Assembly: GCA_010093995.1 (NCBI GenBank)
Contig: ML992525.1
Location: 1 to 64,000 of the forward strand
Length of the DNA: 64,000 bases
From: Elsinoe ampelina
Lineage: Eukaryota
Direction of reading: 5' to 3'
Position 1 is the first letter of the stretch, and each line of letters begins with the position of its first letter. Of this stretch, positions 2,830 to 53,101 are shown piece by piece. The notes beneath the pieces are model-generated. The model made no database searches. It worked only from the letters and a program-made list of their open reading frames with translations, and had not been told where the DNA came from. The position numbers and the translations under genes are program-made.

Positions 2830-4183
2830 ATGCCTTCTCTTCAGTACCTCTCGACGCTGGCCGTCGCTCTTATTTCGGCTGGCCTCGTCTCCGCTCAAGC
2901 TGCACCCCCTGCCGAGTTCCAAGTCGCACCGTCCCCAGTCGGACGCGGCGGGACGCAATTCAAGGACTCTCCTCACTTCCGTGTCTACGGTGCTCCTGAT
3001 GCCAAGGCCACCAATGCCATCGGTCAGCTCGAAGCGGCCTACGACTGCTTCATCGAGACCCTGGGCTGGCGCTCCACCGGTCTCTCCTTCAACGATGCAC
3101 AGAACGACGGGCCATGGTACAAGACTGGTGTCTATCAGGTAGCCGACCTAGGCGGTGCAGCCGGCGCCATGTCCGCAGACGGCAAGACAGGTCTAGGCTA
3201 CCTCAACGCTCTCCCCGCCTACGTCGACAACGCCGGCGTCATGGTCCACGTCCGTCCCCTCCTCCACCTCCCCTAACCATCCCCACTAACCATTTCCCCC
3301 GCAGGAATTCGGCCACGTCATGACCTACCACGAACAAACCTGGGTCAACCAAGGCAACACAGGCGCCTGGTGGGAAACCGTCGCCAACTTCGTCGCCGAC
3401 ACATACCAAACCTCCCCCCTCTGCGCCTCCGCCCGGCAAGCCAACTCCCAACCCACCGCAACCACCACCAACATCAACCTCGACAAACTCATCTCCAACT
3501 CCTTCCGCGTCCTCGTCGACGGCTCCCAAGGCACAGGCAACTACTACGAAGCCTGGCCCTTCCTCACCTACCTGACCAACAACCCCGACGCCTTCCCAAA
3601 GCTAGGCAACGACACCCTCCGCCAACTCTTCCGCCAATACGCCCCCCGCTCCAACGAAACCCCCCTGCACACCCTCGAGCGCGTCGCCGCCCCCGAGACC
3701 TCCCTCCAGCGCATCGTAGGCCGCTACTGGGCCCGCATGGCCTTCGTCGACATCGGCCACCCCTTGGCGCAAGCGGCCTTCACGCGCTCCCGCGCGCGCC
3801 TCAACTACGCCAACGTCGACCCCGCGGGCGTCGAGGGGACGTACCGCGTCAAATCCGACAGGAGACCGTTCTACATGGGCGCCAACATTGTGCCGCTCAA
3901 GACCACGGGAGGCGCGGCCGTGACGGCGCGGGTCCAGACCGTGTCGCCGGGTAAGATGACGGCGACGGTGGCGGTCAAGGGGCCGCAGGGGACGCGGTAC
4001 GTGGATCTGGTCGGCGAGGTGGGCGATGCGAGGGCCGAGTTTGAGGTGGGGCAGGGGGAGGAGGCCATGTTGGTTGTGGCGAATACGCCGGAGGTGATCG
4101 TGTATAATGGGTTTCAGTTGCCGGGGAGTCAGGCTTTGTGGGGGTTGGATTGGAGTGTGACGTTGACGGGGGCTACGGCTTAG
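2830..4183 (+). CDS. Secreted putative zinc metallopeptidase (HExxH; DUF6055-like), 2 exons
   Basis: Signal peptide MPSLQYLSTLAVALISAGLVSA. Removing intron 3250-3304 gives VMVHEFGHVMTYHE, followed by WWETVANF. Confidence 0.75.
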
Positions 4184-4555
4184 GTGTGGGGAAAGGGTGG
4201 AGGGGAGGAGGAGGGACAGGAGGGGTTTATGGGGAACAGGGAGGTGAGATGTTGCATGCATGAGTGGGCGGGAGGGTGGGCGGAGGCACGTTGTAGTCGG
4301 CTTCGATTCTTGTGTGATATACTTTTATTTCTTTGGGACTATTGGAATCATCATCCTGGCCCTGGTTGCTCCTGACTACGCTTCTTGCGATTCTTGGTCG
4401 TGACTCGTTCGTGAAACTATTATGAGATCCTTCCTGGTGACCTGACCAACTCCATTATGCTTGGGGGAGATACTCGACCCCGATGCCTCACAAGTGTAAT
4501 GAAATTCGTGAATGTGTGAAATGCCGTCAACATGCACCCGTCGTGGATCTTCAAT

Positions 4556-5624
4556 CTAATCGTCTCCTGGGTTCTGGTGTTTGGATAGACTCGAGTTGGA
4601 GTAGTTGTACCTTAGATCTGGTGCCCGACGCATAGCCTCGTGGGCGAAGAGTTGCTTGAGGCTGCCACTACCCTGACGAGACGTCTCACCCATAGGCTTC
4701 TTCTCGTAAGTGAGCTCTCCTTCAACGACACGGAAAGCTGTGGCTGTGCTAGCGTGACTTCTCAACGAGGCTTGCCCTTCCGCTTTGTGAACACTTGCTG
4801 GAGCAGTGACGGGCATGACGAGGTCTATTGATCGGGTGCTGTGGTGACGCTGACCATTCCAGTGCACTGGTCGGTTGGGAGCTGTCCGAGAAACAGAGTT
4901 GTAGCTACTCGAAGGAGAGGTCATGGAATTGGGTGTGTGGCTGAGGGACGGCAGTGTAGAGTGCGAAGAGGTGTTCTGTCCACGATAGTAGCCTGGCCTT
5001 GGAGTGCGGCGAGCTGGACTGCCGCTGCTATTTGACAGGAACTGAGAGAGGTATTTCGAAGCCTCCGAGTCTGCCCTGCTCATACCCGGGCGGTTGAATA
5101 TCGAGCCGTCGTCCGAGGCTATACTCGTTGGTCGGAGGACTGTCGGTGATCGCTGCGGGACAATGTCCGCATATGTTGAAGAGGGGTCGAAGGTAGTCGT
5201 CGGGGAAGGAGAGGGGAAGCCAGCGTCCAAGCAGGCCGAGAGTGGTCGCGCGCCGTCCTTCTTGCGGCACCTGATTCATGTCAATTGGATTCCATAACCT
5301 TGAATAGATGGACTTACGCTTCCGAGCAGTATAGTAATGAGGCATTGGGTGTGATGATCTGCTTCTCGCACGTCGTGCTACAATCATGTCAGACCTCTTG
5401 CTGCAATTACTCCGCAACAATACAACCTACCAGTAGTTTGGAAGCCCTGCCATTTCTCTCCAATCGTCCTCCTCAATATCGGCTTTTGAATCCCTCTTCG
5501 TGCTCTTACCACTTCCGGGCGAACTCTTGTGCGTACCCTTGCTGAACTTTAATGTTGACGGCTTTGTATTCTTCAGGTGTCCTCGACCATATGAGTTTGA
5601 ACGAACGGTGCCCAGTCTGGTCAT
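4556..5624 (-). CDS. Ecl1-like life-span regulatory factor, 3 exons
   Basis: Exons 5624-5431, 5377-5318 and 5270-4556 splice to YCTTCEKQIITPNASLLYCSEACRKKD, the Ecl1 Cys motif, followed by a Ser/Pro-rich tail. Confidence 0.85.
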
Positions 5625-7340: not shown

Positions 7341-7462
7341 TAGGCGCAGCGTGGAGTCGAACCTCGCGTCTCCTCAGGGCTTCTAGGACGCGTCCCTGCC
7401 GAGACAGGTAGCCATCTAGTACTTCTCACTCTGAATTGCACTAACCGTTGAGCTATACGCCT
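7341..7462 (-). ncRNA. Pol III tRNA-like gene (atypical intron-containing tRNA or tRNA pseudogene; anticodon undetermined)
   Basis: A box TAGCTCAACGG (7455-7445) and B box GGTTCGACTCC (7363-7353). Acceptor stem AGGCGTA/TGCGCCT plus discriminator A, a D arm, a T loop TTCGACT, and a T5 terminator at 7334-7330. Confidence 0.7.
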
Positions 7463-10102: not shown

Positions 10103-11464
<1,362 letters not shown>

Positions 11465-11817
11465 ACGCATGCTGGAAGGTTGAGACGAACGACTGGGTTG
11501 TAAATATTCATGTATCACAGCATGGCGAAAAGTTCGGAATGGTTAAGAATGTATTCGTCATGTACACAACTGTACCAATCCGCTATGCCCACGAAACCAT
11601 TCGCCATGCACGCCTAGGTATCAACATCGATTGGACAATCTCGTGAAGTCGTGCGTAAAGTACCCCAACTCAGTTGGCTACCAAACGCCAAGTTCGGACA
11701 TCTCCTCCACACTGCGGGCTTTACCATAATGTTTCCGCCTTGCATCTAATGAATCGTACACCTCTCTGCCTCTTCCTACCATCTACCACTGACCATTCCC
11801 CCTCTCACCTTCCCATC

Positions 11818-13694
11818 TCAACCAACACTAACCAACTCCCCCCTCTCCTCCCCACTCCCGGACGACACCTTACTCTCCTCCTCGACCTGCACTGCTCAAA
11901 AATCAGCAAAGTCTCAATCAATCTTCGCATCCCCCAACTCACCGTTCGGCTTGACGAACCACGCGAAAATAAACGCCAACCCAAACGTCGCCGTCAAACA
12001 AACAAACACCGTCTGCCTGAACGACTCCACCGTGGCAATGAAAATGGTCTGGAAGATCGTCGGCGCCACCACGCGAGCCAGCGCGTGCAGTAGCCCCAGC
12101 GCACCGAGCAGCTGCCCCGTCTTCTCGGGCGGGACGTGTTTCGTCAACGCGCTCTGCAGCGTCGGACTCCCCATGCCGCCGAGAGAGGCGACGACGCCGG
12201 AGAAGATCATGACCGACCCTTGACGGGCGAGGGTGTAGCCTAGGTAGCCGACGGTGTCGAAGAAGACGGCGGTGCGGATGACCATGAGGTCGAAGTAGTC
12301 TGAGCCGTGGTGTTTGCGGCTCATGGCGTGGGGGTTCGGTTTGCCGCGGACGAGACGGGTGATGGTGGGGAGGATGACGAAGAGGGAGAGGACTCGTGCG
12401 GTGTTGACGATGCTCATGAAGACGCCGGATTCGTAAGTTTGCCAGTTGAACTGGAAGCGGACGTAGATGAGGATGACGGTCATGCTGCCCATCGCGACGC
12501 CGAACATGAGCGTGTCGACGGCGGCGAGGAGGATGAGGTTACGGCGGAGTTCGGGGGTCGAGCCAGGACCGGTGGGCCACATGACTTTGAGAGGGGCGAC
12601 GAGGTTGATGCTTCGGAGTTGGTCGATCCAGTCGTTTGAGGTTTGGCGGGCGGAATTGAGGGATTCGTGCTTGTCGCGGGCGATTTGTTGTCGTCCTTTG
12701 GATAATGATTCCGGTGCGATGAAGCCCATGAAGAGGAGGAAGAAGATGTGGACGCCGAGCATGATGTAGAAGACAGTCAATGGGGTACCAGTGGATCTAG
12801 TGATGAGACCGGCCAGAATGGGACCAGCAGCGATTCCTGTGAAGAGGCATCCATGAAACATGGCAAAGGCGACACTTCGGAAAGCCGGAGTAGTGCAGTC
12901 GGTGGCATATGCATGAACGATGGCAAAAGCTGTGGTGAATGAGCCACAGATACCATCAAGGGCAAACCCGAGCAAGATCCAATTGACAGAGAAGGTCTCT
13001 GGATTGCTCGCGGCCATGATCGTGATAACATCGCCGCTCAAGGAACCGAGACTGGTAATGGCGATCATCTTGCAGCGACCATAACGATCTGAGAGAGCTC
13101 CGAGCTTCGGGGCGGTTATGGCAGAAAGGAGACCTGCTATCAGGTTGCCATACAGAGTGAATTGCGCTGAACGCTTTTCTACTTCGGCAACCTGACATTG
13201 TGGATTGGCACCATCGAATACCACCGGAGCAGCGATAAAGCCAGGGATGGCTGTCTTCTGTTCGTCCAGATATTCTCGGCACAGCAGATTTATGATCAGG
13301 TTGACTCTAGGTGTGATGATGCCTCCATAGGAAATCGCCAGGATAGAGAAGGGTACTAATACCCAGTAGATCTATACATAACCAGTCAGGATCATCTCTC
13401 GAGGGGTTCTTGATAACCACATACCGACGGCCTCTTGTACCATGGTAAACCGGCAAACTCATCTACTGGTGGTTCGTCCTCATCATCACCACCGGAACCG
13501 TCCTTTTTGTTGTTCAGAAGAGGTTGGTCTTCGTCTGCTTCGTGCAGTAAGTCGGCATCAATTCCTCCCCGCGCTGCTACAGTATTGTATTGCCCGGCCC
13601 GACTGTTACTACTGCTAGCTCTTGCAACTTGAGCCCTCATGGCTTTCCTATCTATCGCGGCGTCTGCGACAAAGGCCGGGTCTGTATTGTCCAT
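11818..13694 (-). CDS. MFS transporter (tetracycline-efflux/SLC46-like), 3 exons
   Basis: MFS motif A LGALSDRYGRCK and about 12 hydrophobic segments. Introns near 13425-13372 and 11942-11892; last exon ends ...ELVSVG*. Confidence 0.88.
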
Positions 13695-15351: not shown

Positions 15352-18300
15352 ATGGCCACCTTAGCACGCCGCTTCCTGGTGGTATTCTTGTTATGCTGCC
15401 AACTCGTCGCCGGATTGACCACGAAGACCCTCGCTCAGCCGGCCGTCGAAAAACGTCAGGCGACTCAGGATCTGGTAGGCCATGGAGGAGGCATTTGCTG
15501 CACCCACGGCTAACCGAGCAAGGTCACTTTTGACGACAGGACGCTTTTCGTCCGTGGAGAACGAATCCTCTTCTACTCCGGCGAATTCCACCCTTTCCGA
15601 CTGCCAGTCCCGGACTTGTGGTTCGACGTCTTCCAGAAGATCAAAGCACTTGGGTACAATGGCGTCTCATTCTATGTAAGCACTCAGACAGCTGTGGATT
15701 TGGGCAAGCACTGAGACGACGCAGGTCGATTGGGCTCTCATAGAAGGTGCTCCAGGAGACTTTAGCGCCGAGGGTGTCTTTGCATGGGAACCATTCTTCG
15801 AAGCTGCGGCCGAAAGTGGCATCTACCTTCTAGCACGCCCTGGCCCGTACATCAACGGCAAGTCACGCTAATCCACGTTGATCGTATCAGCTGACATCCC
15901 ACCAGCTGAAGTGTCTGGAGGTGGCTTTCCAGGATGGCTGTCTCGTGTCCCTGCGTACCTGAGGACGAACGAGACTGCATTCGTTGAGGCGAGCAGAAAC
16001 TACATTGCGAACATTGGCAAGATCATTGCGGCAGGCCAAATCACAAACGGAGGTCCAGTCATTGCCTTCCAGGCTGAGAATGAGTACAGTGCTGGTGCTC
16101 CATGGACTACCTTCCCAGATGCCGAATACTTAGAGGGCCTCGAGCAACAGTTCCGCGAAGCTGGAATCGTTGTGCCCTTCATCAACAACGAAGCCTGGCA
16201 AGGCGGACAGGTCGTACCTGGCGAGCCCGGCGGTCCTGACATTTACGGCTTTGACAATTATCCTATTGGTTTCGATTGCAGCAAGCCGACGAGCTGGGAC
16301 ACCGCTTCTCTGTCAAGCAACTACTGGCAGACCCATCTTCAGCAGAGTCCCAACGGTCCTCTATCTATCATAGAGTTCCAGGGCGGTGCTTTCGGTGGAT
16401 GGGCTCTACCTAGCCAAGATGAATGTGCTGCACTGATCAACCACGAAGCCGAGCGGGTTTTCTACAAGAACAATTTTGCGGCAGGTATCAGCATCTTCAA
16501 TATCTACATGACCTATGGTGGAACCAACTGGGGCAACCTCGGTCAATCAGGAGGTCTTACTTCTTACGACTACGGTGCGGTCATCGAGGAGGACCGACAG
16601 ATCACTCGCGAGAAGTACTCGGAAGCAAAGCTCATTGCCCAATCCATCACTCGCGCTCCAGCATACCTCGAGGCCGTTCCTGGGCAGGCAACAAATGCGT
16701 CCTTCACTAACAATCCAGCCATTACTGTCACCCAGGTCGCAGGCAAGAAGACCAACTTTTACGTTGTCCGACAGACTGATTACAGGTCACTTGGATCGAC
16801 GAGCTATACCTTGACCGTGTCGACAAGCGCAGGTAACTTGACCATACCTCAACTAGGCGGTACACTTGCCATCAATGGCAGAGACTCCAAAGTTCAGGTC
16901 ACGGACTACGATGTCAACGGTGTCAACCTAGTCTACTCTTCTGCTGACATCTACGCACATACTCAGACTGGCAACAAGAAGGTGCTTCTCCTGTACGGTC
17001 TCGCTGGTGAGACACATGAGCTGGCATTTGCCTCTGAGCTTGGCGAGCCTTCAGTCGAGGGTGAGGTCATTGTTGAGCAAAGAGACTCCTTGAATGTGGT
17101 GCAATGGAACGTTACCGCTGAGCGCAAAGTCTTGCACTACGGCGATGACCTCGATGTCTACCTGCTATGGCGAAACGATGCGTTGAACTACTGGATCCTT
17201 GACCTCGAGTCGCCCGCACCAATCGGCAACTACACCAGCCAGACCAAGGACATCATCATTGCCAAAGCTGGCTATCTCTTGCGAACAGCAAGCCTGTCCG
17301 ACGACAAACTCTACTTGACCGGCGACCTCAACGCCACTGCCACTCTCGAAGTTGTAGCTGGAGCACCTGCGTCCGGTGAGATCTACTTCAATGGCCAGCA
17401 AGTCGCAGATATCGAAGAGACTCAAGGCCGCCTGTCCGCACCTCTCTCATACTCCCCTCCCACAATCACCATCCCCGACCTCACCACCCTCGACTGGCGC
17501 TACACCGACGCCCTCCCCGAACTCTCACCCACCTACGACGACACCCCCTGGACCTCCGCCTCCAACCCCACAACCAACAACTCCCTCCGCGACCCAGTCT
17601 TCTCCACCGGGCTCCCCTTCGAGCTCCGCACCCCCACCTCCCTCATCGCCTCCGACTACGGCTACCACACCGGCTCCCTCCTCTACCGGGGACACTTCAC
17701 CTCCACTGGCAACGAAACCACCCTCACCCTCTCCATCCAAGGGGGCGTCGCCTTCTCCCACTCCGTCTGGCTCGACGGGACGCACATCGGTTCCTTCGCC
17801 GGCACCGCAGGGGACAGGAACTGGAACCAAACCTTCCCCCTTTCCCTCAACTCCACCCTCGTCCGAGGGAAAGCACACATCATCACCCTCCTCATCGACC
17901 ACATGGGCATGGAAACCAACTGGTGGCCGGGCTACAACTTCCAGCAATCCCCCCGCGGCATCCTGGACTACACCCTCACCGGCCGCCCCCAGGACGCCAT
18001 CGCCTGGAAACTCACCGGCAACTTCGGAGGGGAGCGGTACCCCGACCGTACGAGGGGCCCGTTGAACGAAGGCGCCCTCGCCCCGGAGAGGAAGGGGTGG
18101 CATTTGCCTTCTGCGCCGACGGGGGCGTTGGAGGGGCGGTCGCCGCTGGAGGGTGTGCGGGGCGTGGGCGTGGGGTTTTTTGTCGCCGGGTTTGAGTTGG
18201 ATGTGCCCGTGGGGTGGGATGTGCCGATGAGTTTTGTGTTTAATGAGGGAGTGGTTGGCGGGGAGGAGGGGGCGAGGTATAGGGCGCAGTTGTACGTGAA

Positions 18301-18638
18301 TGGGTGGCAGTTTGGGAAGTATAGTGAGTTCATCCCCTTTTTTTCTCTTATTTGTCTTGCGGGGACGGGCTACGGGGATCTGGGCTGGGTGCTTGGGGAA
18401 GTTGCTGACTTGATGTGCAGTCAATCACTTGGGTCCGCAGACAAAGTTCCCTGTTCCTGAGGGGATTCTGAATTACGACGGGGCCAATTACGTGGCCATC
18501 ACGCTGTGGTCGCAGGAAGAGGGTGGGGCGAAGCTGGAGGGGTTGAAATTAGAAGTGGATGCAGTGGTCCAGTCTGGGTACAGGAAGCCAAAACTCGTGT
18601 GGGAGGACAAGTGGGAGGAGAGGGAGGGTGTCTACTGA
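15352..18638 (+). CDS. Secreted GH35 beta-galactosidase (LacA-type), 5 exons
   Basis: Signal peptide; motifs [52 protein letters not shown] and [13 protein letters not shown]. One GC-AG intron at 15858-15905. Confidence 0.95.
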
Positions 18639-18871
18639 TGCAGTGGAGGCATTACCAGATGATTGAGGCTGGGTGTAGTGCAGACCAACAGCGAATGCAT
18701 AGAGTTGCAACGCTCAGATATTCAAAATCTCCTCAGTCCATTCGTATACATGAACGCTCGCTATCATCTATGCTATGATCATCATTGCTTGCGCCTTCAA
18801 TATTTCCAATGGTATCGACCCGAATCCAAGCAAATGCAAACGCTATGTCGCGAGTGTCGAAATCACAAAAA

Positions 18872-25610: not shown

Positions 25611-26310
25611 ACCAGTCCGTCTCGCAACAAGACGTGCATGACCATACGAGACTGGTTGATGGGAAGGCGAGGCTCGATTCCGCACATCATTCCTCTTGAG
25701 TAGGAGCTCACACACTGATGTCGATCGCTCGGTGCGGGGTCTGCCGACCAAACATCCAGCTTCGATCGGTCTCCAGGAAGATGAGAAGAAGCAGCTCGCT
25801 TACAGAAGAGCAGGGATGAAGATTGGCAATATTCTGGGTCGCAGTAGACAGACCCGTCGTCGTGCCGTACGTCCAGCTCATGAATGATCGCATGTGGAGC
25901 CGAATAACGGTCAGGATCATGCAGCTCAATCTATATCAACCTTTCCAGATTATGCAAGATACCCATCTCGTGCTAAGCCGCCTGGTTTCACCAAGGATTC
26001 TATATTGCTCTTCTCCACAATTGACGATTGTTTCATAAGAGATATCTTTAGTATCAATACCTGATGACATACACAAGACACAGAATCAGATCCAGACCAA
26101 AACTAAAAAGCACACCTACCTGATCCGAGGGAAGCATTTGGGGATTACCATACAAGTCGGATCGACAAACGGTCAACCGAGGGCAAGCCGAACCTGAACC
26201 CCGCCCCGCCCATCACCCGCAAGCTCTCTCCACCACATACCTTAATATTCCCTGCATATCAACCGACGCCTCAATCCCATTTCCTCTCCTGCCCAGCCCA
26301 GGTCACCACC

Positions 26311-27573
26311 ATGCACTTCCTCAGCCTCCCCGCCGAAATCCGCTCCAACATCTTCAGCTTCATCCTCTCCCCCTCAGCCAACCGCACAATCGACTCACAA
26401 GCCTACACACACTACTCCTTCCGCCGCTCCCTCGACCTCTTCCTCGTGTCACGCCAAATCGCCTCCGAAGCCCGCGCCGTCTTCTACAACCTCAACACCT
26501 TCATCATAATCTCCACCCCATGGAACGAAGCCCAAACCCACGTCGCCATCGAGGGCCACGTACCGGTCATCGCCGGCGGGGCCGCGGCCGACAAATTCGA
26601 CCTGTGGACGATGGTGATAGGGATCAATAGCCCGACGTACAAGTTTCCGGAGGAAGAGATGCGCAAGTTCGTCATCCACATCGACGATCTGCCGTCGTTC
26701 GCGACGACGTGGAAGTACAGCGACCTCACGCATCCGCAGCTCAATCCGAACTTGAGTCTGGAACTGCGGCTGCGTGATCCCAAGGCGAGGAAGGAGTGGG
26801 AAGAGCCGGTGATCACCAAGCGGGTGCAGGAGAGGTTGTTGTTGCCGTTTGGGGTGGTGAAGAGGTTGGCTGGGTTGGAGGTCAAGGGGAGGCCGATGCC
26901 GTTGGCGAGTGTGCAGGAGCGGTTGCGGAAGGAGATGGAGGAGCCGCATGAGAGTCCGGAGAGTTGTTTGCGGAGGGCGACGGGGTTCAAGGATGAGGGA
27001 AATAAGGCGTTGAAGGTGGGGAGGTATGAGGAGGCGTTGGAGTTGTATAGGCAGGCTTGGTTGGCTATGCATATTGTGGTGAATGGGAGGACAAGGCATG
27101 TTCATGCGGATTTGTATTACAATAGGGAGTTGAGGGAGGAACCGTTCAAGGGGATGCAAGGACACACGGTGAGGTTGGCTTTGAGGGTTAAGCTGGTGGC
27201 GAACACGGTTATGCTGTATCTCAAGATGGAGAAATATGATGTGAGTTGGCTTTGCAGCTGTGAAGAGGGAAGTATGATCGGCTGACGAATACTGCAGGAT
27301 GCCATACATTGGGGCAACAGGACGATCAACATGATCCGAGAAGCTATTGGTCTGCCGGAGAACGAGGAAGCGGCCCGGCCGGAGGACGAAGCTATCACAA
27401 ACTTTGTGGCTGCCGTCGATATGGGCAAGGTCTACTTCCGGACTGCTATGGCATACAAAGCACTTGACCAAAAGGACGAAGCTCGGAAGCTGCTCAAGGT
27501 CGCTCAAGTGTACTTGCCTCTGGACAGGAAGGTGCAGGAGGAAGTCACCGCTTGTGCTCTCAGGATCGGCTGA
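26311..27573 (+). CDS. Hypothetical protein with F-box-like N-terminus and TPR-like C-terminus, 2 exons
   Basis: F-box-like FLSLPAEIRSNIFSFIL; TPR-like FKDEGNKALKVGRYEEALELY and KVYFRTAMAYKAL. Intron at 27241-27297. Confidence 0.7.
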
Positions 27574-29978: not shown

Positions 29979-32900
29979 ATGAGCTGGAATCTGCTCGAAC
30001 GCTTCCTCGAGTCGGAACATTTCAACAAGGACCCGTCTCTGACCGTCGCATACCTAGCGTGAGGGCAATCTCCAAGACAGATAGATAAGAGCTTGACTGA
30101 CCTTGGCTCTATACAGACGGTATGCGGACCATGTGGGCATCCAGTATGTCCTGTGCAGCAAGTTGCGCAAGTTCCCCCACGAGGAGATCGAGTTCTTCTT
30201 GCCGCAACTGTGTCATTTGCTCATCTCGATCGACAATGAGTCCATGGCACTCGAGGAGTTCATTATAGACTTGTGCGAAGATTCTGTGAATGCTGCACTA
30301 CTGGTCAGATATGTGTCGAGATGGTGCAGACACTCTACTGATTTGTATAGACCTTCTGGCTGTTTCAAACATATCTCCGCGACCTTTCTACCAATCCCAA
30401 CTCGTCTGGCTTCAAAAAGTGTCGGAGAATCTACAATCGTGTGCAGAGGATCGTGTTTGGTGCTTCCGAGCCGGTAGTAAGAGGCCGGATCAAGGACAAT
30501 ATTCTCCCGACTACGGTCCTGGCGAGTTTGGTATTGACAAGTGTCGCGGCTCCTTTTTTCCCGGCTCATGGCGGACCGCTCGCGATTGCTCAGGCGAGGA
30601 AGCCTAGACAGCTGGAGCAGATGGTGTCCGAGCCGGTGCAGATCAAGAGACCAGCAAGGAGTCATACAGTGTCTGGAGATCCTGCAAGACCGAGACGACC
30701 AAGGGCAGTGCCACGAGATGGAGAGGGTGCTCCGAGACCGAGGAGACCGGCTCACAAACCAAATCTGTCAGTAGATGTGGCAAGCTCACAAGGGAGCCCT
30801 TCTGCTGCGGATGGGCCAGCTCCGAAGAGGCATGCTTTGCTGGACACGAAGAATCACCAAGGCTATATAAGCTCTTCATCTTTGCCTGATCCCAAACTGC
30901 CTCAATCTTCGCCGATGCAGTCGCCCGACCCGAACAAGACGACACGCGAGACGAGAAGACCGGTTGATATGCAGCGACGACATTCCCATGCTGCAAAAGC
31001 ACTCACGCCTACTTCGTTGTCTCCGAGGCAGAAGACGAGAATACTCAGATCGAATTACTTCAAGCTCGAGACACAGTTTTTGACAGCTCTGGAGGATATC
31101 TCGAACAGGCTTGTGGTTGTACCAAAACCAGCTCGCCTCAGTGCTTTGAGAGCCGAGCTTGCACTTATCGCACAGGACCTACCCGCTGAAGTCGACATTC
31201 CGATACTGTGCCCAGCTACTCTAGAAGACGGGAAGCCTGGCCGAAGCAAACACCATCGGATCGTGCGTCTGAACCCAGCCGAGGCGACCAGCTTGAATAG
31301 TGCAGAGCGTGTGCCGTACTTGCTCATGGTGGAAGTCCTGCGGGAAGACTTTGACTTCGATCCTGACAGCCACCAGAATAGTGAGCTGATTGCGAGACTT
31401 CTGGCGGACAAGAATAAGAGTAAGCGCCGACTGTTTGACATCACAGACGGCAACCGTGCAACGATCAAATCGCCTGAAGAGGATGGTCAGCATGACAGTG
31501 TGTTTGAGCCGGCAATGGGCGATCTAGCCAGCCCGGCACTTCTACAAGATCCAGATGGTGATGAGAAGCAGCTCGGTCAATCGACAAGGACGCCTCCACC
31601 AGGCGCTGGACAGCCTCTGAAAGAGCCACCTCGATTATCGTCTGGTGTATCGACAGTCTCGACCTCGTCCCTCATCACACCTAGAAATTCTGAACAACCA
31701 ATCTCTCGATCCTCTTCACCAGGTGCCCGCCTCTCCAACTCTAACATCTCACGCACAGGAGGAAGTGATCAGACCGACTTTAATGCTCTTGCAACCCACA
31801 TGAGAACAGCGAGCCAAATGCTTGCCCAACTCGAGCTCTCCTCCTCCAAGCGACCAAAAGCTGAAGTCGCCGCCATCAAAGCCAAAATCATCGCCTCGAT
31901 GCAAACCCTCGAAGAACAATCCTTCTACACGGACGAAGTCATCACCGCCACCCCCGCCAGCCTCGCCGCCATGATCGACTCGGCCAACGCAGCCGGAGCC
32001 ACCGCCTCCCCCGACGACATCTCCGACGACGCCTCCACCACCTCGGTCGACCCCAACCTCTCCACCAACGCCGGCGCCGCCCGCATGGAAAACGACATCA
32101 AAACCGGCGGCGTCTCCCGCCCCGGCGACCGCGACGACCCCTCGGCCGCCACCTTCGGCGAAGCCTGGAGCGCCAAACGGGAACGCATCCGGCGCTCCTC
32201 CCCCTACGGCTGGATGAAAAACTGGGACCTCGTCTCCGTGATCGTCAAAACCGGCGCGGACCTCCGGCAAGAAGCCTTCGCGTGCCAACTGATCGACATC
32301 TGCGGCAAAATCTGGCACGAAGCCTCGGTCGACGTGTGGGTGAAACCCCTCCGCATCCTGGTGACGGGGGAATCGTCCGGGCTCATCGAAACCATCACCA
32401 ACGGCGTCTCCCTGCACTCTCTCAAACGGTCCCTCACCCTCTCGTCCATCGCCTCGGGGAAAAACCCACGCAAACGCATCGCCACGCTCAAGGACCACTT
32501 CCTGCAAGCGTTCGGCCCGGAGTCCTCCCCCGCCCACTCCTCGGCCGTGACCAACTTCGCCCTCTCCCTCGCGGGCTACAGCGTCATCTCGTACGTCCTC
32601 CAGCTCAAGGACAGGCACAACGGCAACATCCTCCTCTCCGACCGCGGCCACATCATCCACATTGACTTTGGCTTCATGCTGTCCAATTCCCCGGGGAGCA
32701 TGGGCTTCGAGGCCGCCCCCTTTAAACTCACGGCCGAGTACGTCGATGTCCTCGGCGGGTTGGAGGGGGAGGCCTACGCTTTGTTCGTCCGCAAGATGAA
32801 GGATGCGTTCCAGGCTTTGCGCAGGGAGGCCGAGAGGGTGGTCATGTTGGTCGAGTTGATGGGGAGGGAGAGTAGGATGCCGTGTTATGCTGGGGGTGTC

Positions 32901-33112
32901 GGGGCTGTGGTGGCGGCGTTGAGGGGTAGGTTTGTGCTGGAGAAGAGTGAGAGGGAGGCCGAGGCTTGGGTGGAGGAGTTGGTGGGGAAGAGCGCGGGGA
33001 GTTATTATACGAGGTTGTGAGTGTTTCCCCACTGGTGGTGGTGAGAGGGGACGGAGGCTAATGATGTCGCAGGTATGATACGTTTCAGTATAGGACGCAG
33101 GGCATATACTAG
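29979..33112 (+). CDS. pik1: Phosphatidylinositol 4-kinase III beta (Pik1), 4 exons
   Basis: Motifs EFFLPQL, IVKTGADLRQE, KDRHNGNIL, HIDFGF and FEAAPFKLT. Final exon reads YDTFQYRTQGIY*. Confidence 0.96.
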
Positions 33113-33502
33113 GTTTGGACTGAGAAGAGGATCAGAGGAAAAGGAGGCTGAAAGGAGAGAGATGGTCGACCAATATGATGAGACAGCATTGCACACATAG
33201 ACTTGATGACATGATTGGAGATGCTTCAGCTTCCGACGCAGTTGTCAGGCAGCACAGTGATCATGTCAAAAGCATTCAAAAATCAATACGTCAGCTGGTA
33301 TATAGTACACTGATACATCATGGCTAAAGCAACCATACAATCGCAATCGTCGACGCCGCCCCCTCGAGGATGGTAGGTAAAATGTAAGAGACAGAGAATT
33401 GTTGTGACCAAGCGCCGGCGTCAGGATACGTTAGCTGTCGTCGGATCGTCAAGGCATACTCGGAACCGTGTCGTTGTGTTGAACAGTAGGGCCGCGGTCT
33501 GA

Positions 33503-42724: not shown

Positions 42725-43085
42725 TATAGCGAAGCATCCGCAATAGCATTATACCCTCTACCATTGCCCTGATAGGGTCTAACAATAATAATCGTCCCTC
42801 CCAACGCCTCGCTTGACCTGTCATAATCCCATGCCCACCATTCCCGAACGCAGGTTCTTATCCGCTCTCGAACAATTCATCAACCCGTCCACCACCTCCC
42901 ATCCTCTTCATCCGCCGAGCAAGCTCCTCCCGCATCCGGCGAACCCCCTGCTTCCGCCTCCCCACCCTCTCCAACCTCCACCGTGCACCAGCATACGCTC
43001 TCGACACCACCCTCCCCTCCACAACCGCATAATCCACCCCCTCCACCCACATCCCTCCTCCCCCATCCCGCTTATCATAGCGTTC

Positions 43086-43493
43086 CTACCGTCCCTGCCC
43101 CACCCCTTCCCCGTCCTCCCCCACCACCTCCCTCCGATCTAAACTCCCATTCCTCCCCCCTTCCCTCCCTTGTACCCCATCCCCCAACTCCCCTCTCATC
43201 CCCCCCTCGACATCCCCCCTCCCATCCCTCCTCCTATCCCCTGCCCCCCTCTCCTCCCGCCCCTCCCCATCAGCCTCGACGACCTCCATCCTCCTGCCCA
43301 GCTGCTCAAGGAGAAACGCCCTCTCGAGGCGCATCTTCAGTATCGCTCGGTCCAGACGCAGGCGGCGCACGCGCGCGGCGTCGTTGGCTTCTTCGACTTC
43401 GTTGAGGCGGCGTTTGAGCTCGATGCATTTTCTGTAGTAGGCTTTTTCCACCGAAGGGGGGAGGGGGGTGAGGGTTGTTGGGGGGGTGGTCAT
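43086..43493 (-). CDS. INO80 complex subunit F/Nhp10-N-terminal-like coiled-coil protein (3' end uncertain)
   Basis: LPPSVEKAYYRKCIELKRRLNEVEEAND...MRLERAFLLEQL, followed by a G/E/R low-complexity tail. Confidence 0.65.
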   Translation of the reverse strand: MTTPPTTLTPLPPSVEKAYYRKCIELKRRLNEVEEANDAARVRRLRLDRAILKMRLERAFLLEQLGRRMEVVEADGEGREERGAGDRRRDGRGDVEGGMRGELGDGVQGREGGRNGSLDRREVVGEDGEGVGQGR

Positions 43494-43952
43494 TTCTGCG
43501 TTGTCGGGGGGTGTGAGAGTCGATTGATGGTTGGTGGCTGGAGGTGGAGTCGGGTAGTGTGGCTCGTGGTTGACTGTACGGTTAGGCTGTTTGATTGGGG
43601 TGGTGAGACGGCGGGGACGCAGCTGGTGAAGGAAGGAAGCCGCGATTGTAGCGCATGGAAGCTTGAAGCTGGAGAAGGCTTAGTCAGCGGGTATACCATG
43701 TGAAATGGTTCGGGTGCAAGAGACCATGCGTACTACTTAAAATGCTGATGACAAGACGAGGAACATTGATTTGGTCGCTTGCTTGATTACACACGTGATA
43801 GTCTTGTGATTCAGCATGTCAAGCTTCCCGCTCAAGAGCTGCTCTACAGGAATTGTGTAGCTTCATTACACCTGACAATCATCTATCCTATCCTACAAAC
43901 CGAGAGTGAAGTGCCATGCTACTCATCACGTCGTATACAATACCACTACTCC

Positions 43953-45098
43953 CTATGTCCACCTCGAAAATGCTCGCCCAAAATCATCCGCTGTGACACT
44001 GTTAGCATTCATCCACCCAATCACACTGATCATGCTCACCATAAAACCCAGTAACAAAACACCCACTCTGCTCCCTCTTCGCCTCCGCCTTGGGCAACCA
44101 CCCCTTTATACTCTCCATCCGATTCCGACTCGCCGGATGCGTGCTCAGAAACTGCGGCGGACCTCCCCCATCCCTCTTCTCCAATTGATCCATTCGCTCC
44201 CACATGTCCGCCGCCGCAGAGGGGTCGTAGCACGCCTCGCTCATCATGATCAATCCGATATAGTCTGCCTCACTCTCCTGCTTCCTCGAATGCGGGTTGT
44301 CAAAGGCATACTCCACCGCCAACCGTGTCAGACTGAGGTCGTCGAGCCCGAGGAAGAAGCTGACCAGGAATGCCACGGGCATGAGCACCCATGACTGACT
44401 CAGCCTTTCTCCCACGTGGTTGGCTACGTTGTGGGCGATCTCGTGTCCTAGCACAGCGGCGAGGCCGTCTTCACCCTGAGCTACGTCCAGGATGCCGCGG
44501 AAGACAAAGACGTGACCGCCTGGTAGCACAAAGGCGTTCTTGGTCTTGTCATCTATTACGTGTACTGTCCATCTGCTTGACTCATTTGCAAAGCCGGAGT
44601 GTGGTAGGAGGCGTTGGAGGACGCGCTCGGTCATGCGGTGTAGAGGGTGGGTTTCGGGGAGGATCTTCTCGTCGAACTCGTCGAGGGTTTGTTGGAAGGC
44701 CGTCTCGGAGGTTCGACGGACGAAGTCGTCGGAGATGAAGTTGAAGCGGCGGCGACCGGAGACCTGGGCATGTTAGTATGAGTTGAGCCGTGACCGAAGA
44801 AGGAGGTACGGACTGGTACTTCTTCAAGGTTGGAGATGTAGAAGCCGCCTACTCCGGCGCTGATGAAGCCTATTTGATAGTAGAAGGTGGGAGACTGAGC
44901 CCATCGGTGGAGGAGATTAGTGGTGGTCTTGAATCGGTTGTAATTGTAGCGCGCTCGCTGAGGTGTGGTTCGCGAGAACGTGCGCGATTGAAGCTGTGGA
45001 AGAATGCGAGAACGAAGCGGTTGTAATCTGCTCGCCGGCTGTGGCAGCTGACGAGCGCCGAGAGCACTGAAAAGACGCCAGCGAGGCCGCGAAGCCAT
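43953..45098 (-). CDS. oma1: Mitochondrial M48 metalloendopeptidase Oma1, 3 exons
   Basis: Motifs NAFVLPGG, LGHEIAH, ESEADYIG and FLSTHP, with a presequence and two GT-AG introns. Confidence 0.93.
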
Positions 45099-45354
45099 GT
45101 TGTTACGATACGTATACGTGGCGGTGTGCAGAAAGGGACATTGTGCGTGGTTGTGGTAAGAGCTATGGTGCAGGAACCTAACTCGACGGAAGAGCATCCA
45201 GTCAGACGTCGCGCTAAGGATGGTTTTGTCACCATCGATAAACCTCTTGAGCGTATTCCCTAGGGAATTGTCCTAGCACATGTATGGGATCTCTCAAGTA
45301 CTTGGCAATTATCAGTATATTACAAGCTGTGGGTATCTTGGAAGGGTAATGTAT

Positions 45355-48332: not shown

Positions 48333-48452
48333 CAAATTTCGGCAGCTGTGATTGGCCCACTCAGCATCACGGGTCATCTTGACCAAGCACCATCTCCATC
48401 TCTTGCTAGGTATACATGTTGGAAGTTGGATGAAGAATTACATGTAAGAGCT

Positions 48453-50616
48453 ATGCCTGCTGACAGGCTGCTGAGCACGCTGCTCAGAGCTCTGCAGACG
48501 CACGCGGATCAACAAGATACACCTCGGTGCGCAACACCACAGTCGGCCTGTACCGCAACCACTAACAACGCGTTCAGGATACTCGGGACTGCCGCATCGC
48601 TGCTGACGAGCTTGAACAACCCTTTAAATGTCACACTGCTAGTCAGCCAAGTTCTGAGTGCACCCGCACTATGGACTCGTGCCGATGGGCTACGCTTCTG
48701 TCTCAGCTTCATGGGCGTCTTCCATTCGGCTGTCAAACGGGTCGCCCAAGCAGACCTTGAAGAAGCTGAAAACAAAGCGAAGAATCGGCAACGCTACGAG
48801 CTACCTTCTGAACCTCGAATCCCATTGGCTGAATGGGTACAAGCTGTTGTGGAAGGAACTGACGAAAAGTCACCACGGTCTCGCCACCTGTTGGTTCTTG
48901 GAGGTATTCTGGTTGGCCTCGGTCACGAAGAAGACGACTTTGTGTCTCCGACTACCAAGGCTATCTTACAAGAGGCCTTTGTAAAAGCTACGAATCTCTC
49001 TCTACATGATCGAAATGACAGTGAGCTGAGTCGACACATCATCGCTCTCGCATTGAATCACGCATTCCCGTACCTCTCAGACTTTGAGAGGTCACGCATC
49101 GACTATGACGAGCTGTTGCCAGTTCTCATGCAATCATTACTTCATTCACAGGAAGGGCTACGATCAGGATACTTCCTCCAAGCAATCGACACCGAAGTAC
49201 ATCAAGTATCAGGCACTCAATTCAGCTGGTCAGCATCATCCTCCACGTACCATCAGGTACAACGGATGCTAGCGGGGCCTCTGATCCAGTCCATGGGCGC
49301 GCTCTCTCGTCTAATTGCTCACGCTGCCGAGAACGTAAGTGACTCGTGGCTGGTCTCCTCCATGGTAGACGACGTTGCAGAATTCTCCAGCAACCTTCAC
49401 AAGTCGTGGCGACACAATAAGCTGTCGGAAATCGACGTTGCAGATGAGGAGCAATTCCTTGCCCAGGAAGCCAGACAAATGACCCTTCCGGAGCTGTGGC
49501 GATTGCTTCGGAGCACGTTGTTCGCAATGGTCATTGTCCTTCGTAGTGGTACAGGCCGACTGCTTGGTGACAGGACTCTCGGTAGTGATACAAGTGGGTA
49601 CACCAACGCTTTAATCCCGCATACTAATCACGACAGTCGCTCCACAAATCGCAGCTCAATCATTACGCGCACTGCATGACCTCAACTTCATCTTTGCTCG
49701 GCTGTCAAATGCCGCCTTCAGCCAGTACACCTTCACCCATCTCACATGTATCGATGTCCTCAACTCTTATCCCTCAGCTGCTCTTGAGTTTCTCAGATCT
49801 ATAGCTCCTACAGAAGCTGGCAAGATTCCTCAGCATCCCCTGGAGCGAACATCTGATCTGTTCTTCCTCAATACGGCAGAGCACTTTACGCTTTGCATAC
49901 CGCCAACGGAAGCTGAGAGTCTTTTAATACAGGCGGCATTACCTTATCTGACATCGACATCGACACCCGAACTCATCCCCATCTTCGAAGCTGCGCACTC
50001 TGTCATGTTGGCAGTCTTCTCGGCGCCGCAGAATGCCGAAGTAGCATCGCGACATTTGCCCTTCTATGTCGATGCACTGTTCAAGGTCTTTCCACAAAAC
50101 CTTTCTGCTCGACAGTTCCGGCTGGCATTCAAGAATCTAGTGAAAGTAGTAAGCCCGCCGAACGCAGTAGCACATCAAGAGCCAATGCTTGCCGCAATAT
50201 TACTCGACCTCATACACGAGCGGGCATTACATGCTCCGACTATGCCTTTACCTCCATCCGGTACGCAGCCACAAGTCCATGATCAATTCCCGCCCCTCTC
50301 GGAACAAGCAGTACTGGTACTTACTCTGGTCGACGCCTTGCCATTCATCGAAAATGGCCTCCTACAAGAGTGGCTCCCAATGATGCCAGGTCTGCTCCAT
50401 ATGGTAGCGGATGAAATAATGAGAGAGCATTGCATCAAACATCTATGGGAGACTATGATGGGTGGCAACATGGATTCGGAGAGAAGTCAAGTCTGTGTTG
50501 GGTGGTGGACTACAGGAGGGGGTATGGAGTCGACGTTATATGGCGGTCAAGGCGGTGAGCCACAGTATGCCATGGCAGGAGCTCTACCTGCGCGAGGGGA
50601 AGTTGCAAAAATATGA
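48453..50616 (+). CDS. pex8: Peroxin Pex8 (often annotated Pex17 in filamentous fungi), 3 exons
   Basis: N-terminus MPADRLLSTLL...LNNPLNVTLL; FPQNLSARQFRLAF; C-terminal PTS1-like AKI. Introns at 48527-48577 and ~49594-49636. Confidence 0.85.
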
Positions 50617-50922
50617 TATGATTGACACGATGGTGGATTGTAGGCTATGCATGTTTGTAGGCAGATACCCAGGATCAGGGCGTCCTCTGTATTTTCACCT
50701 CTGTATTTTCCCCTCTGTAATATCTTCTCATCGACCATGATGAGCCCAGCCCTCGCTGATGGTCTTGCCTCTGCTGCCTCAATGTGCCTGCCTGGGCAGA
50801 GCATCAAATGACCGGCACCATTTCCGGCGAGTGGCTAGTCCTGCCTCTGTCGAGCTCTTCGGAGCCGCCGTTGTACATGGAGCATGCCTTTTCGAATATG
50901 GTCCCTCTTCTACCATGTACCT

Positions 50923-51864
50923 TCAACCTGGGATATCTCTCTCGTTGTCCGCTCTCAGCTCAGCCATCAATCCATCCTTGTTCCTCGTCTTTTCATCCTC
51001 GTCCAGCTTCTCCATCACCACCTTATGCAGCCACTTTGCCTTCTCTTCCGCAACCTTGGTACACTCGATTATCTTCAAGGGCTTTATCGGATACCCGCCA
51101 TACTTGGCCAACTGCACAACCTCTCCAAACCGGTTCATGCCCACCACTAACTCTGCATCTCTGACCTGCTCTTCAAGCAGATCCGCATCGACTACAACGA
51201 CTTCCTCTCCGTCACCGACATAACCAGTTCCTCCCTTCCCTACCACCTCCTCCGGCACATTCCTGAAGAAACTGAAAGTCACACAGAAAGGGACATGGTT
51301 CAGGCTCAATCTCACCGGTTCCCTCTCCCGCGGGTCAAAGATCTTCACCTCTTCACCTCTGACCTCTACCTCCGGTCTGCGATAGTGCAGCAACCCTGCG
51401 ACAACAGCCGCACACGCCGCATCAACCAATCCTCCATCAAAGTCCAAGACGTGCACATCCGCTCTCACAGCGAACACCTTCTCTCCTGCCACGATACACA
51501 GGCTTTCCGTGTCCAGCGCTCCTGACCTTCTGATCGTCTTCTCCAGCAACCGACTCAGCAGTGTCTCCGCATCTTGCTGTCTCCCGACTTCAAAAGCAGG
51601 ACTCGCTAGTGGGGAAAGCTCAGTCGAGATTGTGAAGACGCCGTCGAACTTTCGGTCCGGGAAGGGCGTGGTGATAGAACTTGAGATCTTGACGAGGATA
51701 CGCGTCCGACCAAGCGAGAGCGTCACAGTGCCGGGTGTGGGATCGAAGGAGAGGTCTAGAGCACGATGGGAGAGGAGCGGGCGGGGTGTGAGACGTTGGC
51801 CTGAGCGTAGAGCGGAGCGGAGAAAAGTCGCCGCATTCAAGGAGGGTTCAGGCTCGCGAGGCAT
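50923..51864 (-). CDS. rrp45: Exosome core subunit Rrp45 (RNase PH fold)
   Basis: SRLLEKTIRRSGALDTESLCIVAGEK, DGGLVDAAC and LLHYRRP. Confidence 0.94.
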   Translation of the reverse strand: MPREPEPSLNAATFLRSALRSGQRLTPRPLLSHRALDLSFDPTPGTVTLSLGRTRILVKISSSITTPFPDRKFDGVFTISTELSPLASPAFEVGRQQDAETLLSRLLEKTIRRSGALDTESLCIVAGEKVFAVRADVHVLDFDGGLVDAACAAVVAGLLHYRRPEVEVRGEEVKIFDPREREPVRLSLNHVPFCVTFSFFRNVPEEVVGKGGTGYVGDGEEVVVVDADLLEEQVRDAELVVGMNRFGEVVQLAKYGGYPIKPLKIIECTKVAEEKAKWLHKVVMEKLDEDEKTRNKDGLMAELRADNERDIPG

Positions 51865-52108
51865 GATGTGAGAAAGAGCGGAAGGGGTGAAGACCCCGGT
51901 ATGAATGAAGGTGGAGGAGAGCTTGTCCCTCACCTCCGAGCGGGAAACTTTTTTGGAGCAAAACCCCGAAGTTCAGCCGGCGAAGGTTTCCAGCATCCAT
52001 CTCCATCACTCACCTCCGTCCACAACCAACTCCCCCATTCGCACCTCACATACATCCTCTCACCCACCCTTCACCCTCCAGTCCTCCCCCAATCCCTCTA
52101 CCACAGCA

Positions 52109-52897
52109 ATGACAACCGCCCACCGCCCCACCTTCGACCCAGCCCGAGGCAAAGACGCCGCCCGCGGCCCCGCCTACCACCAACGCCTCCTCCCCGCGCA
52201 CAAAACTCTCAAATACCGACAAGCAAACCAAGGCACGACCTCGGAGACCGCCCGCCGCGACCTCCGCGCCGAGCTCCTCCGCAAAGAAAAGCGGCACTAC
52301 GCCTCCAAGTCCGGGATAGAGTACACCTCCTCCGACGACGACGAGGATGTCCCCCGTCCCCACGCCATCACCGAGAAAGGCGAAGGGCACAGCCAGCAAG
52401 GGGCGAAACGCAACCACGACACCGCGAACGGGTCCGACGCTGGCAGGGAGGTGGTGGACGAGGAGGAGGAGAGCTACGAAGCGAAACGCGCCCGCGTCCT
52501 GGCCGAGACCAAAGACCTAGACGCTTCCTCCTCGGGCTCCGGCTCGGACGACTCCTCATCCGACTCGGACGACGACGACGACGACGACGACTCGGAAGCA
52601 GCGCTCATGGCCGAGCTGGCGCGGATCAAGAAGGAGCGCGCCGACGCCGCCGCGAAAGAAGCCGCGGAGAAGGCGAAGCTGGACGAGGAGGAGAGGGAGA
52701 AGGAGATTGCGTATGGGAACCCGTTGCTTAATCCCAAGAGCGAGGAGTATGGTGTCAAGAGGAGGTGGGATGATGATGTGGTGTTTAAGAATCAGGCGAG
52801 GGGGCAGGGGGAGAGGGAGAAGAAGGGTAAGGAGTTTGTGAATGATTTGTTGAGGAGTGATTTCCACAAGAGGTTTATGGGGAGGTATGTGAGGTGA
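52109..52897 (+). CDS. cwc15: Pre-mRNA splicing factor Cwc15
   Basis: MTTAHRPTFDPA, VKRRWDDDVVFKNQA and FVNDLLRSDFHKRFM. Confidence 0.97.
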   Translation: MTTAHRPTFDPARGKDAARGPAYHQRLLPAHKTLKYRQANQGTTSETARRDLRAELLRKEKRHYASKSGIEYTSSDDDEDVPRPHAITEKGEGHSQQGAKRNHDTANGSDAGREVVDEEEESYEAKRARVLAETKDLDASSSGSGSDDSSSDSDDDDDDDDSEAALMAELARIKKERADAAAKEAAEKAKLDEEEREKEIAYGNPLLNPKSEEYGVKRRWDDDVVFKNQARGQGEREKKGKEFVNDLLRSDFHKRFMGRYVR

Positions 52898-53101
52898 TTT
52901 GGTGGGGATGTTGAGGATGGTATTATGAAGGAATGGGCATTCTGTCATCAGTCATGGTTCAGACGATGTGGGGCAAGGTCACCAACACAGATGGAGAAGT
53001 CAAAGGGCAGTAGAATGATGCAATTCCTGCTCAAACTATCAAAGGCTCGTAATTTGGAAAGATCACGCTGGGGGTATCTGTCACTCGCATCATGCAAGCA
53101 G

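Follow-up and report, generated by a model that had tools for sequence, protein, structure and literature searches.

The window, i.e., the complete 64-kb stretch of the Elsinoe ampelina genome analyzed here, contains nine islands in which the sequence turns from C-rich to G-rich:

Island 1, 3197..4300, centre ~3861: last exon of a + strand gene (DUF6055, 3320-4183), ~320 bp before the stop codon; left arm C 0.46/G 0.19, right arm G 0.48/C 0.17.
Island 2, 11662..12943, centre ~12174: - strand MFS transporter gene (exon 11914-13371) with a convergent neighbour; the centre falls in the 3' part, ~260 bp short of the stop codon.
Island 3, 17427..18680, centre ~18039: + strand gene for a GH35 beta-galactosidase (frame 15872-18460), in its 3' part.
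Island 4, 26187..27281, centre ~26569: + strand gene without a Pfam match (26311-27573), ~260 bp past the ATG; the C arm is short and the G arm long.
Island 5, 31657..33165, centre ~32712: + strand PIK1 gene (exon 30351-33020), at the end encoding the kinase domain and ~300 bp ahead of the stop codon.
Island 6, 42734..43722, centre ~43355: spans a small - strand gene with an INO80F domain (frame 43086-43679), UTRs included; the strongest island, with a left-arm skew of -0.65.
Island 7, 43860..45174, centre ~44455: - strand gene for an OMA1-like peptidase M48, whose spliced joints lie at 43990-44040 and 44760-44811.
Island 8, 50902..51921, centre ~51604: - strand RNase PH gene (50923-51864), presumably RRP45-like.
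Island 9, 51989..53369, centre ~52403: + strand CWC15 gene (52109-52897); the right-arm limit was set automatically and is generous, the strong part ending near 52950.

The original prediction had named about eight such islands. All eight (islands 1-7 and 9, at the refined centres given above) are genuine C-to-G change-points, with z values of 7.1-13.7 for 500-bp flanks, while island 8 was missing from its count. Across 821 kb of the genome, 84 C-to-G islands were called. A chance origin is ruled out by block shuffling: the 49 C-to-G calls in 481 kb drop to 0-1 per run when blocks of 1, 3 or 30 bases are shuffled and to 1-8 per run for 100-base blocks. The anticipated fixed polarity, always C and then G, is borne out as well, with only 31 G-to-C switches in the same 821 kb, 29 of which have a C-to-G call no more than 1.2 kb away and two of which are isolated. 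All islands (84 of 84) are hosted by GC-balanced DNA, at a density of one per 6.9 kb of such DNA, which by extrapolation would correspond to a few thousand islands per genome. Their spacing is irregular, from 1.1 kb upward, and their density is similar on four contigs (0.125-0.17 per kb), which argues against chromosomal position as a driver. An assembly artefact was rejected for the islands at 44.5, 51.6 and 52.4 kb, as spliced contigs of other runs extend over them and show no differing letters. Polymorphism among four runs of E. ampelina amounts to two differences in 20 kb, both outside islands, and is uninformative here.

An island is a bounded, two-armed unit of ~1.1 kb. The skew is zero at the centre, peaks at ~250 bp and fades by 550-900 bp, and GC content is highest at the centre (0.63 versus 0.52). 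At four-fold sites the skew in the arms approaches ±0.75; at 100-400 bp from the centre, in both + and - strand genes, C reaches 0.59-0.76 in the left arm and G 0.57-0.73 in the right arm. As expected beforehand, the skew runs through synonymous sites, introns and UTRs: it is found at four-fold sites, in 10 short introns and in UTR-side non-coding DNA, so that protein composition alone is rejected as its cause. Proteins are nonetheless affected, with Pro, His and Thr enriched 1.5-1.7-fold upstream of the centre and Gly, Glu and Val 1.5-2.1-fold downstream. The proposed switch from C/A to G/T holds firmly for its C/G part, whereas its A/T part is weak in bulk (AT skew ~0.1) and clear at two-fold codon sites. 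The composition is best described on the inward strand, defined by a 3' end that points to the centre (top on the left, bottom on the right), as opposed to the outward strand. Non-coding bases on the inward strand rank C > A≈T > G, with log-odds of 1.32 for C:G, 0.74 for C:T, 0.68 for A:G, 0.64 for C:A, 0.58 for T:G and 0.10 for A:T. At two-fold sites of both arms, 200-400 bp from the centre, the corresponding values are 1.7-2.4 for C:T and 1.4-1.5 for A:G; the outward strand is thus G+T-rich at these sites. A single-base rule favouring only C, as suggested by four-fold sites, was dropped because non-coding and two-fold sites also favour A over G. The skew depends little on neighbouring bases. 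The non-coding shift is close to GC-neutral, and four-fold sites have lost A and T far more (AT fraction 0.16-0.2 versus 0.41 for non-coding sites). Deamination or transitions alone, T-to-C changes alone and G-to-C changes alone do not reproduce the four-fold composition.

The islands had been taken as fixed sites, independent of gene orientation. Genes on both strands are indeed skewed, but any C-then-G pattern along the coding strand reads as orientation-independent and hence does not prove independence from genes. Island position in fact follows genes, an outcome that the original prediction had itself named as a refutation of its reading, and the islands do not stand free of them. Predicted exons contain 73 of the 84 centres, most of them 200-690 bp ahead of the stop codon, and 64 of these 73 are 150-600 bp from a gene end, compared to 32 expected. 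In long genes the centre is usually nearer the 3' end (26 of 32). The arms fade about 150-225 bp outside the ATG and stop codon without entering neighbouring genes; at 500-750 bp, skew is 0.66 in the host gene versus 0.16 in neighbours (12 neighbour genes). Long genes with a 3' island (n = 23) display a four-fold skew of +0.71 over the final 150 bp and of +0.37 beyond the stop codon, compared to -0.03 for long genes without an island (n = 35). Upstream, the former show -0.19 at the 5' end, -0.11 in the middle and a minimum of -0.68 some 750-900 bp ahead of the stop codon; the deepest C of long genes is found 600-1050 bp ahead of it. The arrangement is not always a single island at the 3' end: FAN1 carries two complete islands (C-G-C-G) within one 906-codon reading frame, and Med17 has its island at the 5' end, with a G arm that stops mid-gene.

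This anchoring to genes is what a mutation or repair regime limited to the transcription unit would produce, i.e., a local version of the mutational hypothesis of McLean and Tirosh. For example, sense and antisense polymerases might meet or stall a few nucleosomes inside the gene end, each pushing its own non-template strand toward C. Besides the set distances from coding ends, the 3' preference in long genes and the arms that respect neighbouring genes, the mild C-richness of sense strands in the background (skew -0.15 to -0.2) would suit such a regime, as would the average pattern already published (PMC3315797, as far as its abstract and first half describe it). Yet a simple scheme of C at initiation and G at termination fails for FAN1 and for the mid-gene G arm of Med17, and the 5' end of long genes with a 3' island is ordinary (-0.19 vs. 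-0.22). Convergent neighbours are not significantly more common (19/27 versus 30/58, p = 0.16). Moreover, damaged single-stranded non-template DNA should lose C, opposite to the gain seen here. We hold a transcription-linked cause to be possible but rather unlikely.

Replication origins are an improbable source. The outward strand would then be the leading strand, and initiation-specific errors, breaks or an exposed lagging-strand template would have to bias the first few hundred bases only. The polarity agrees with a G+T-rich leading strand, both transitions lean this way at two-fold sites, and the divergence fit described below tolerates a mutation model. Around human origins, too, domains of ~2 kb show a local gain of GC, skews and breaks at the centre (PMC9645720, in the available part of the report). 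Nevertheless, orientation-corrected four-fold skew beyond 1.2 kb is near zero (0.04, -0.12, 0.01, -0.03), spacing is irregular and the arms end with the gene, while transitions alone predict a four-fold A fraction of 0.41-0.44 against the 0.11 observed. The centres are GC-rich and lie inside transcribed exons, unlike mapped yeast origins.

Least probable among the alternatives, and by our estimate very unlikely, is selection for nucleic-acid structures or signals, such as mRNA fold-back, G-rich terminator R-loops or avoidance of C at 3' ends. Bulk pairing between the C-rich and G-rich arms is possible, synonymous sites show the greatest extra GC gain and the CWC15 position is conserved. However, base-specific pairing does not exceed that given by composition, neither in sense-strand segments compared to synonymous shuffles (n = 64; mean fold z -0.04) nor in DNA segments of 22 of 43 islands (mean z -0.07). 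Hairpins, quasi-palindromes and true inverted repeats are thereby rejected. Introns are skewed as well, and the amino-acid shifts are heedless of protein function. No central motif is claimed: the top k-mers are codon-like repeats, none occurring in more than 20 of 43 centres, and their z of 5-6.5 exceeds a null maximum of ~3.6 obtained with a shuffle that breaks codons.

The original prediction had offered origins and break hotspots alike; the disappearance of the skew beyond ~1.2 kb weakens the former, and we favour the latter. In our preferred reading, with a probability of about 0.38, the islands are the long-term footprint of gene-anchored recombination breaks with strand-biased repair. 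A break, most likely initiating meiotic recombination, would recur 250-600 bp inside a coding end. Resection would leave 3' tails on the inward strands (top on the left, bottom on the right), which would pair with donor-type DNA while the outward strands are re-synthesized. If mismatches containing G (G:T, G:G, G:A) went to the donor more often than A:C, C:C and C:T, the inward strand would retain C and shed G on both sides, yielding C-then-G, to which errors made in filling in the outward strand may contribute. We infer both the occurrence of breaks at the islands and this direction of repair. Such a rule predicts near-equal log-odds for base pairs sharing a mismatch type, as found. Plain deamination of the resected 3' tail would give the reverse polarity. 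The scale of an island resembles yeast resection tracts, and its mirror-image shape over a few hundred bases, with GC peaking centrally, is what a break hotspot with biased repair would leave. The low dependence on neighbouring bases, the near GC-neutral non-coding shift, the two FAN1 islands and the 5' island of Med17 also speak for this reading. By domain matches only, the genome carries a SPO11-type domain (TP6A_N match on C12), six MutS (MutS_V) loci and four Y-family polymerase loci. Repair of C/C is 3-5-fold poorer and that of G/T best (PMC3218862). In Zymoseptoria tritici, another Dothideomycete, 1435 of 2578 hotspots are exonic without enrichment at transcription start sites, and intergenic GC-biased conversion is absent (PMC5844332).

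Several observations count against the break reading. Breaks alone would not predict arms that end at the ends of the host gene. Candida albicans shows a strong gene-averaged skew, S. cerevisiae and S. pombe a weak one. Hotspots of Z. tritici are poorly conserved, with 149 shared between sister species (PMC5844332), whereas CWC15 orthologues of many other fungi carry an island at the same place, on a quick tree that allows rough placement only. Divergence at four-fold sites in four pairs of other fungi (628 sites in islands, 957 outside) gives factors of 0.65 for C-to-X and 3.5 for X-to-C within islands. A model of conversion bias alone falls 8-23 lnL units short of one with added X-to-C mutation and draws level only if the mutation rate is raised 1.6-1.8-fold; when the C-to-X factor is left free, it takes a value of 0.58 and the fit gains 2.5 lnL. 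With baseline rates borrowed from other fungi, fitting four-fold composition by conversion requires a C-over-A bias of ~4-12, which is implausible. Within-species differences in metagenomes (24/12,834 in islands, 37/57,036 outside) were not used as evidence, as 14 of the 24 stem from one pair, several are clustered, and p is 0.06 without that pair.

What stands of the proposed fixed-site, two-armed, strand-asymmetric process is thus the local unit with its GC peak, its double occurrence in the FAN1 frame and its kept place in CWC15; independence from genes does not. We regard the islands as a sharp local form of the known fungal gene skew, left most probably by strand-biased repair of breaks and with lower probability by replication origins. 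A broader generalization is doubtful: filamentous ascomycetes would begin meiotic recombination at conserved positions shortly inside the ends of genes, with heteroduplex repair acting as strand-specific biased conversion in which the invading strand retains C and loses G. If true, a non-Mendelian force distinct from GC-biased conversion would recast codons and proteins in about one third of genes, the McLean-Tirosh skew would be its blurred average, and hotspots would be readable from a single genome. Whatever the cause, codon use and amino acids of core genes are shifted, which can mislead codon-bias, dN/dS and phylogenetic analyses. As the skew is resolved to discrete sites with centres placed to ~100 bp, it becomes directly comparable with break, origin and transcription maps. 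The literature searched, mostly without subscription papers, yielded no account of the islands as discrete elements or of strand-specific conversion. While gene-averaged skew is already published, the local two-armed element and the non-coding base ranking are added here.

Among known systems, each compared on the available part of the respective report, replication origins combine skew jumps with local GC gain (Murat et al. 2022, PMC9645720). They share GC gain and skew inversion at fixed sites with the islands, which differ in lacking long-range fork skew and in their tight anchoring to coding ends. Human meiotic breaks cause strand-asymmetric mutation, with C>G and C>T attributed to single-stranded DNA undergoing deamination (Hinch et al. 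2023, PMC7615360). Both footprints are mirror images that peak off-centre, hundreds of bases away from the break or centre, but the human one is context-dependent and seen in rare variants, whereas the islands are visible in bulk composition; deamination of the human type would moreover remove C from the 3' tail, giving the opposite polarity. Genes of the lichen fungus Umbilicaria pustulata contain GC-rich 'inverted repeats' of ~800 bp, reported as a sequencing obstacle with no cause given in that part (Tzovaras et al. 2020, PMC7186782). In length, GC-richness, self-complementarity, location over coding genes (DHFR) and abundance (hundreds per genome) they resemble the islands, which have no sequence-specific complementarity. 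Set side by side by description only, the two may be the same element, and extreme islands may underlie the Illumina drop-outs reported in this fungus. The closest relative is the gene-averaged gradient of McLean and Tirosh (2011), with opposite GC skews at the 5' and 3' ends of fungal genes, for which a mutational hypothesis but no tested cause was offered, and recombination is not considered in the abstract and first half of the text (PMC3315797). In both cases the coding strand is C- and then G-biased, the 3' G-bias reaches into the 3' UTR, four-fold sites, UTRs and amino-acid use are affected, only some genes are concerned and AT skew is nearly flat. Their pattern is a single rising gradient with maximal C-bias at the 5' end, which the 5' and middle values of long genes do not fit; the islands are instead bounded ~1.1-kb two-armed units with a GC peak, which can also be found at the 5' end of a gene or in duplicate within a single frame.

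The C-to-G islands, patches of about 1 kb that are C-rich and then G-rich, are real, genome-wide and shared among fungi. All eight switch points of the original prediction were recovered by sliding composition and a change-point scan (z 7.1-13.7), and the scan placed a ninth C-to-G switch near 51.6 kb of the window. Weaker, sub-threshold C-to-G switches (z 4-5) lie near 1.5, 11.1, 50.4 and 57.9 kb. The assembly of this Dothideomycete comprises 28.3 Mb in 161 contigs, with the window as bases 1-64000 of contig C25. Over 481 kb, a rule requiring skew in both flanks returned 49 C-to-G versus 24 G-to-C calls, while block shuffles gave 0-1 calls (1-, 3- and 30-base blocks) or 1-8 C-to-G and 4-13 G-to-C calls (100-base blocks). 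At a stricter cut-off in 821,391 bases, 84 of 84 C-to-G calls fell within the 580,391 GC-balanced bases (p = 2e-13) and none in the AT-rich blocks scanned; only 2 of the 31 G-to-C calls were isolated. On contigs C3 and C5, blocks of 5-90 kb switch sharply between GC-balanced (0.50-0.57) and AT-rich (0.25-0.35) composition, a pattern typical of RIP-hit repeats. Spliced contigs from four other runs, presumed to be RNA, show 2 differences in 20 kb, with none inside islands.

The best match of the window's CWC15 protein is labelled Elsinoe ampelina, and the next ones come from other Elsinoe and from Myriangium. From metagenomes, 80 CWC15 loci were found, 61 analysed and 52 long enough for the scan, 17 of which (some near-identical) switch within CWC15. 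Because the protein's own codons run C-rich and then G-rich, four-fold sites were checked: in 31 of 44 distinct uninterrupted frames C exceeds G over the first quarter and G exceeds C over the last (p < 0.01 in 11 frames), and 0 of 44 show the reverse. The scan of 26 non-redundant metagenome loci (382 kb) gave 20 C-to-G calls and 11 G-to-C calls, three of the latter isolated; the islands there are similar in width to those of E. ampelina and lower in amplitude.

Features of the window
43086-43410, - strand: small INO80F-domain protein, rich in Pro/Thr at its start and ending in a ~60-residue tail of Gly/Glu/Arg/Asp
45355-47229, - strand: long frame with a 51-base intron (46390-46442), free of in-frame stops and spliced in 4 of 4 runs
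49637-51899: contigs of two runs span the convergent 3' ends of a + strand gene (to 50616) and RNase PH, which may mean that the 3' UTRs overlap; a contig spanning both proves no single transcript
50923-52897: divergent RNase PH/CWC15 pair, retained in many other fungal loci
53412-54362, - strand: frame of many imperfect Gly/Ser/Thr/Asp repeats (GSSGLTG..RDNDTY-like), resembling a hydrophilin-type protein; contigs with loose ends at 53632-53657 may point to variation in the repeats

Averaged over 28 isolated islands, C falls from 0.49 at -250 to 0.13 at +250 and G climbs from 0.13 to 0.48; background is regained by ~600 bp, centre GC is 0.63 and AT skew is ~0.1 or below. Past 1.2 kb from the centres there is no orientation-corrected skew, and that replication origins produce the islands seems rather improbable. 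Tests for base-specific pairing between the arms found none, nor did a search of the centres yield a convincing motif. On the inward strand, whose 3' end faces the centre, four-fold sites hold C 0.70, A 0.11, G 0.11 and T 0.07, with little dependence on neighbouring bases. Non-coding sites follow the order C > A≈T > G (log-odds C:G 1.32, C:T 0.74, A:G 0.68, C:A 0.64, T:G 0.58, A:T 0.10), and depletion of A and T is greater at four-fold sites. At inward two-fold sites 200-400 bp out in both arms, C over T is 1.7-2.4 and A over G 1.4-1.5, which bears out the predicted G+T-rich outward strand. Transitions alone do not reproduce the four-fold composition. Amino-acid use shifts along with this bias: Pro, His and Thr rise 1.5-1.7-fold before the centre, and Gly, Glu and Val 1.5-2.1-fold after it. 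The tail of the INO80F-domain protein looks shaped by island composition more than by function. Selection as the cause of the islands is very unlikely.

Genes were annotated with a purpose-built gene-finding HMM, which missed some and merged others. To check the annotation, 38 island-bearing frames (36 predicted, two hand-picked) were compared with Pfam, and 27 matched a family in the frame predicted. Hosts include many core genes (Med17, Nse1, FAN1, dynein light intermediate chain, PIK1, CWC15). Predicted exons hold 73 of the 84 centres, compared with 57% of random positions in genes, and the distance to a gene end is 150-600 bp for 64 of these 73, against an expectation of 32. Of 32 centres in genes of at least 1.5 kb, 26 are closer to the 3' end, and 25 of those lie 206-687 bp upstream of the stop. 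Non-coding skew dies out 150-225 bp beyond ATG or stop, and four-fold skew 500-750 bp from the centre is 0.66 in the host gene and near background (0.16) in 12 neighbours. The element is therefore gene-anchored and gene-bounded; its position follows genes, which counts against the original prediction. It is nevertheless a local two-armed unit rather than a single gradient per gene. In 23 long genes that carry a 3' island, skew is ordinary at the 5' end and in the middle, and C is deepest 750-900 bp ahead of the stop; four-fold sites along the FAN1 frame run C, G, C, G, and the G arm of Med17 terminates mid-gene. A faint echo (-0.31, then -0.03) in 35 long genes lacking a call indicates that island strengths form a continuum.

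At a rough probability of 0.38, break-centred repair (conversion and/or fill-in errors) makes the islands. A resected break would expose the inward strands as 3' tails, and for each SNP type the heteroduplex mismatch would contain G or C, as set by the allele on the tail. In one study, repair is 3-5-fold poorer for C/C mismatches and best for G/T (PMC3218862). Were the tail mostly turned into donor sequence close to the break (an assumed direction of repair) and G:A repaired better than C:T (also assumed), the tail would keep C and lose G, giving C-then-G; the same rule would make C:T equal A:G and C:A equal T:G, as in the non-coding data. The genome carries SPO11-type, MutS and Y-family genes. 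One MutS_V match (contig C11, 990619-991359) has four in-frame TGA codons, from intron read-through or a broken gene. For Z. tritici, PMC5844332 records exonic recombination hotspots, but poor conservation of them.

The gene-bounded arms count against break-centred repair; a transcription-linked regime is a somewhat doubtful alternative, and other causes take the remaining weight. The divergence fit also counts against break-centred repair. It draws on four of 13 pairs from other fungi, and two of the four have one member in common. In islands, X-to-C changes are raised 3.5-fold and C-to-X reduced to 0.65-fold; pure conversion bias fits more poorly than added mutation by 8-23 lnL, and conversion bias with a 1.6-1.8-fold rate rise about equally well. 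The C-over-A bias required at four-fold sites is implausible, a further point against, as is the species pattern in PMC3315797, where averaged skew is strong in Candida albicans and weak in S. cerevisiae and S. pombe. The candidate mechanisms are directly testable.

Our literature search, of incomplete coverage, found no description of a discrete element or of strand-specific conversion. McLean and Tirosh (2011; PMC3315797) describe an averaged C-5'/G-3' gene skew reaching four-fold sites, UTRs and proteins, and offer two causes, testing neither. Averaged, unexplained fungal skew is known; its sharply local form is new here. The GC-rich 800-bp 'inverted repeats' of a lichen fungus (PMC7186782) may be the same thing, and human break footprints (PMC7615360) and origin footprints (PMC9645720) are analogues of the islands.
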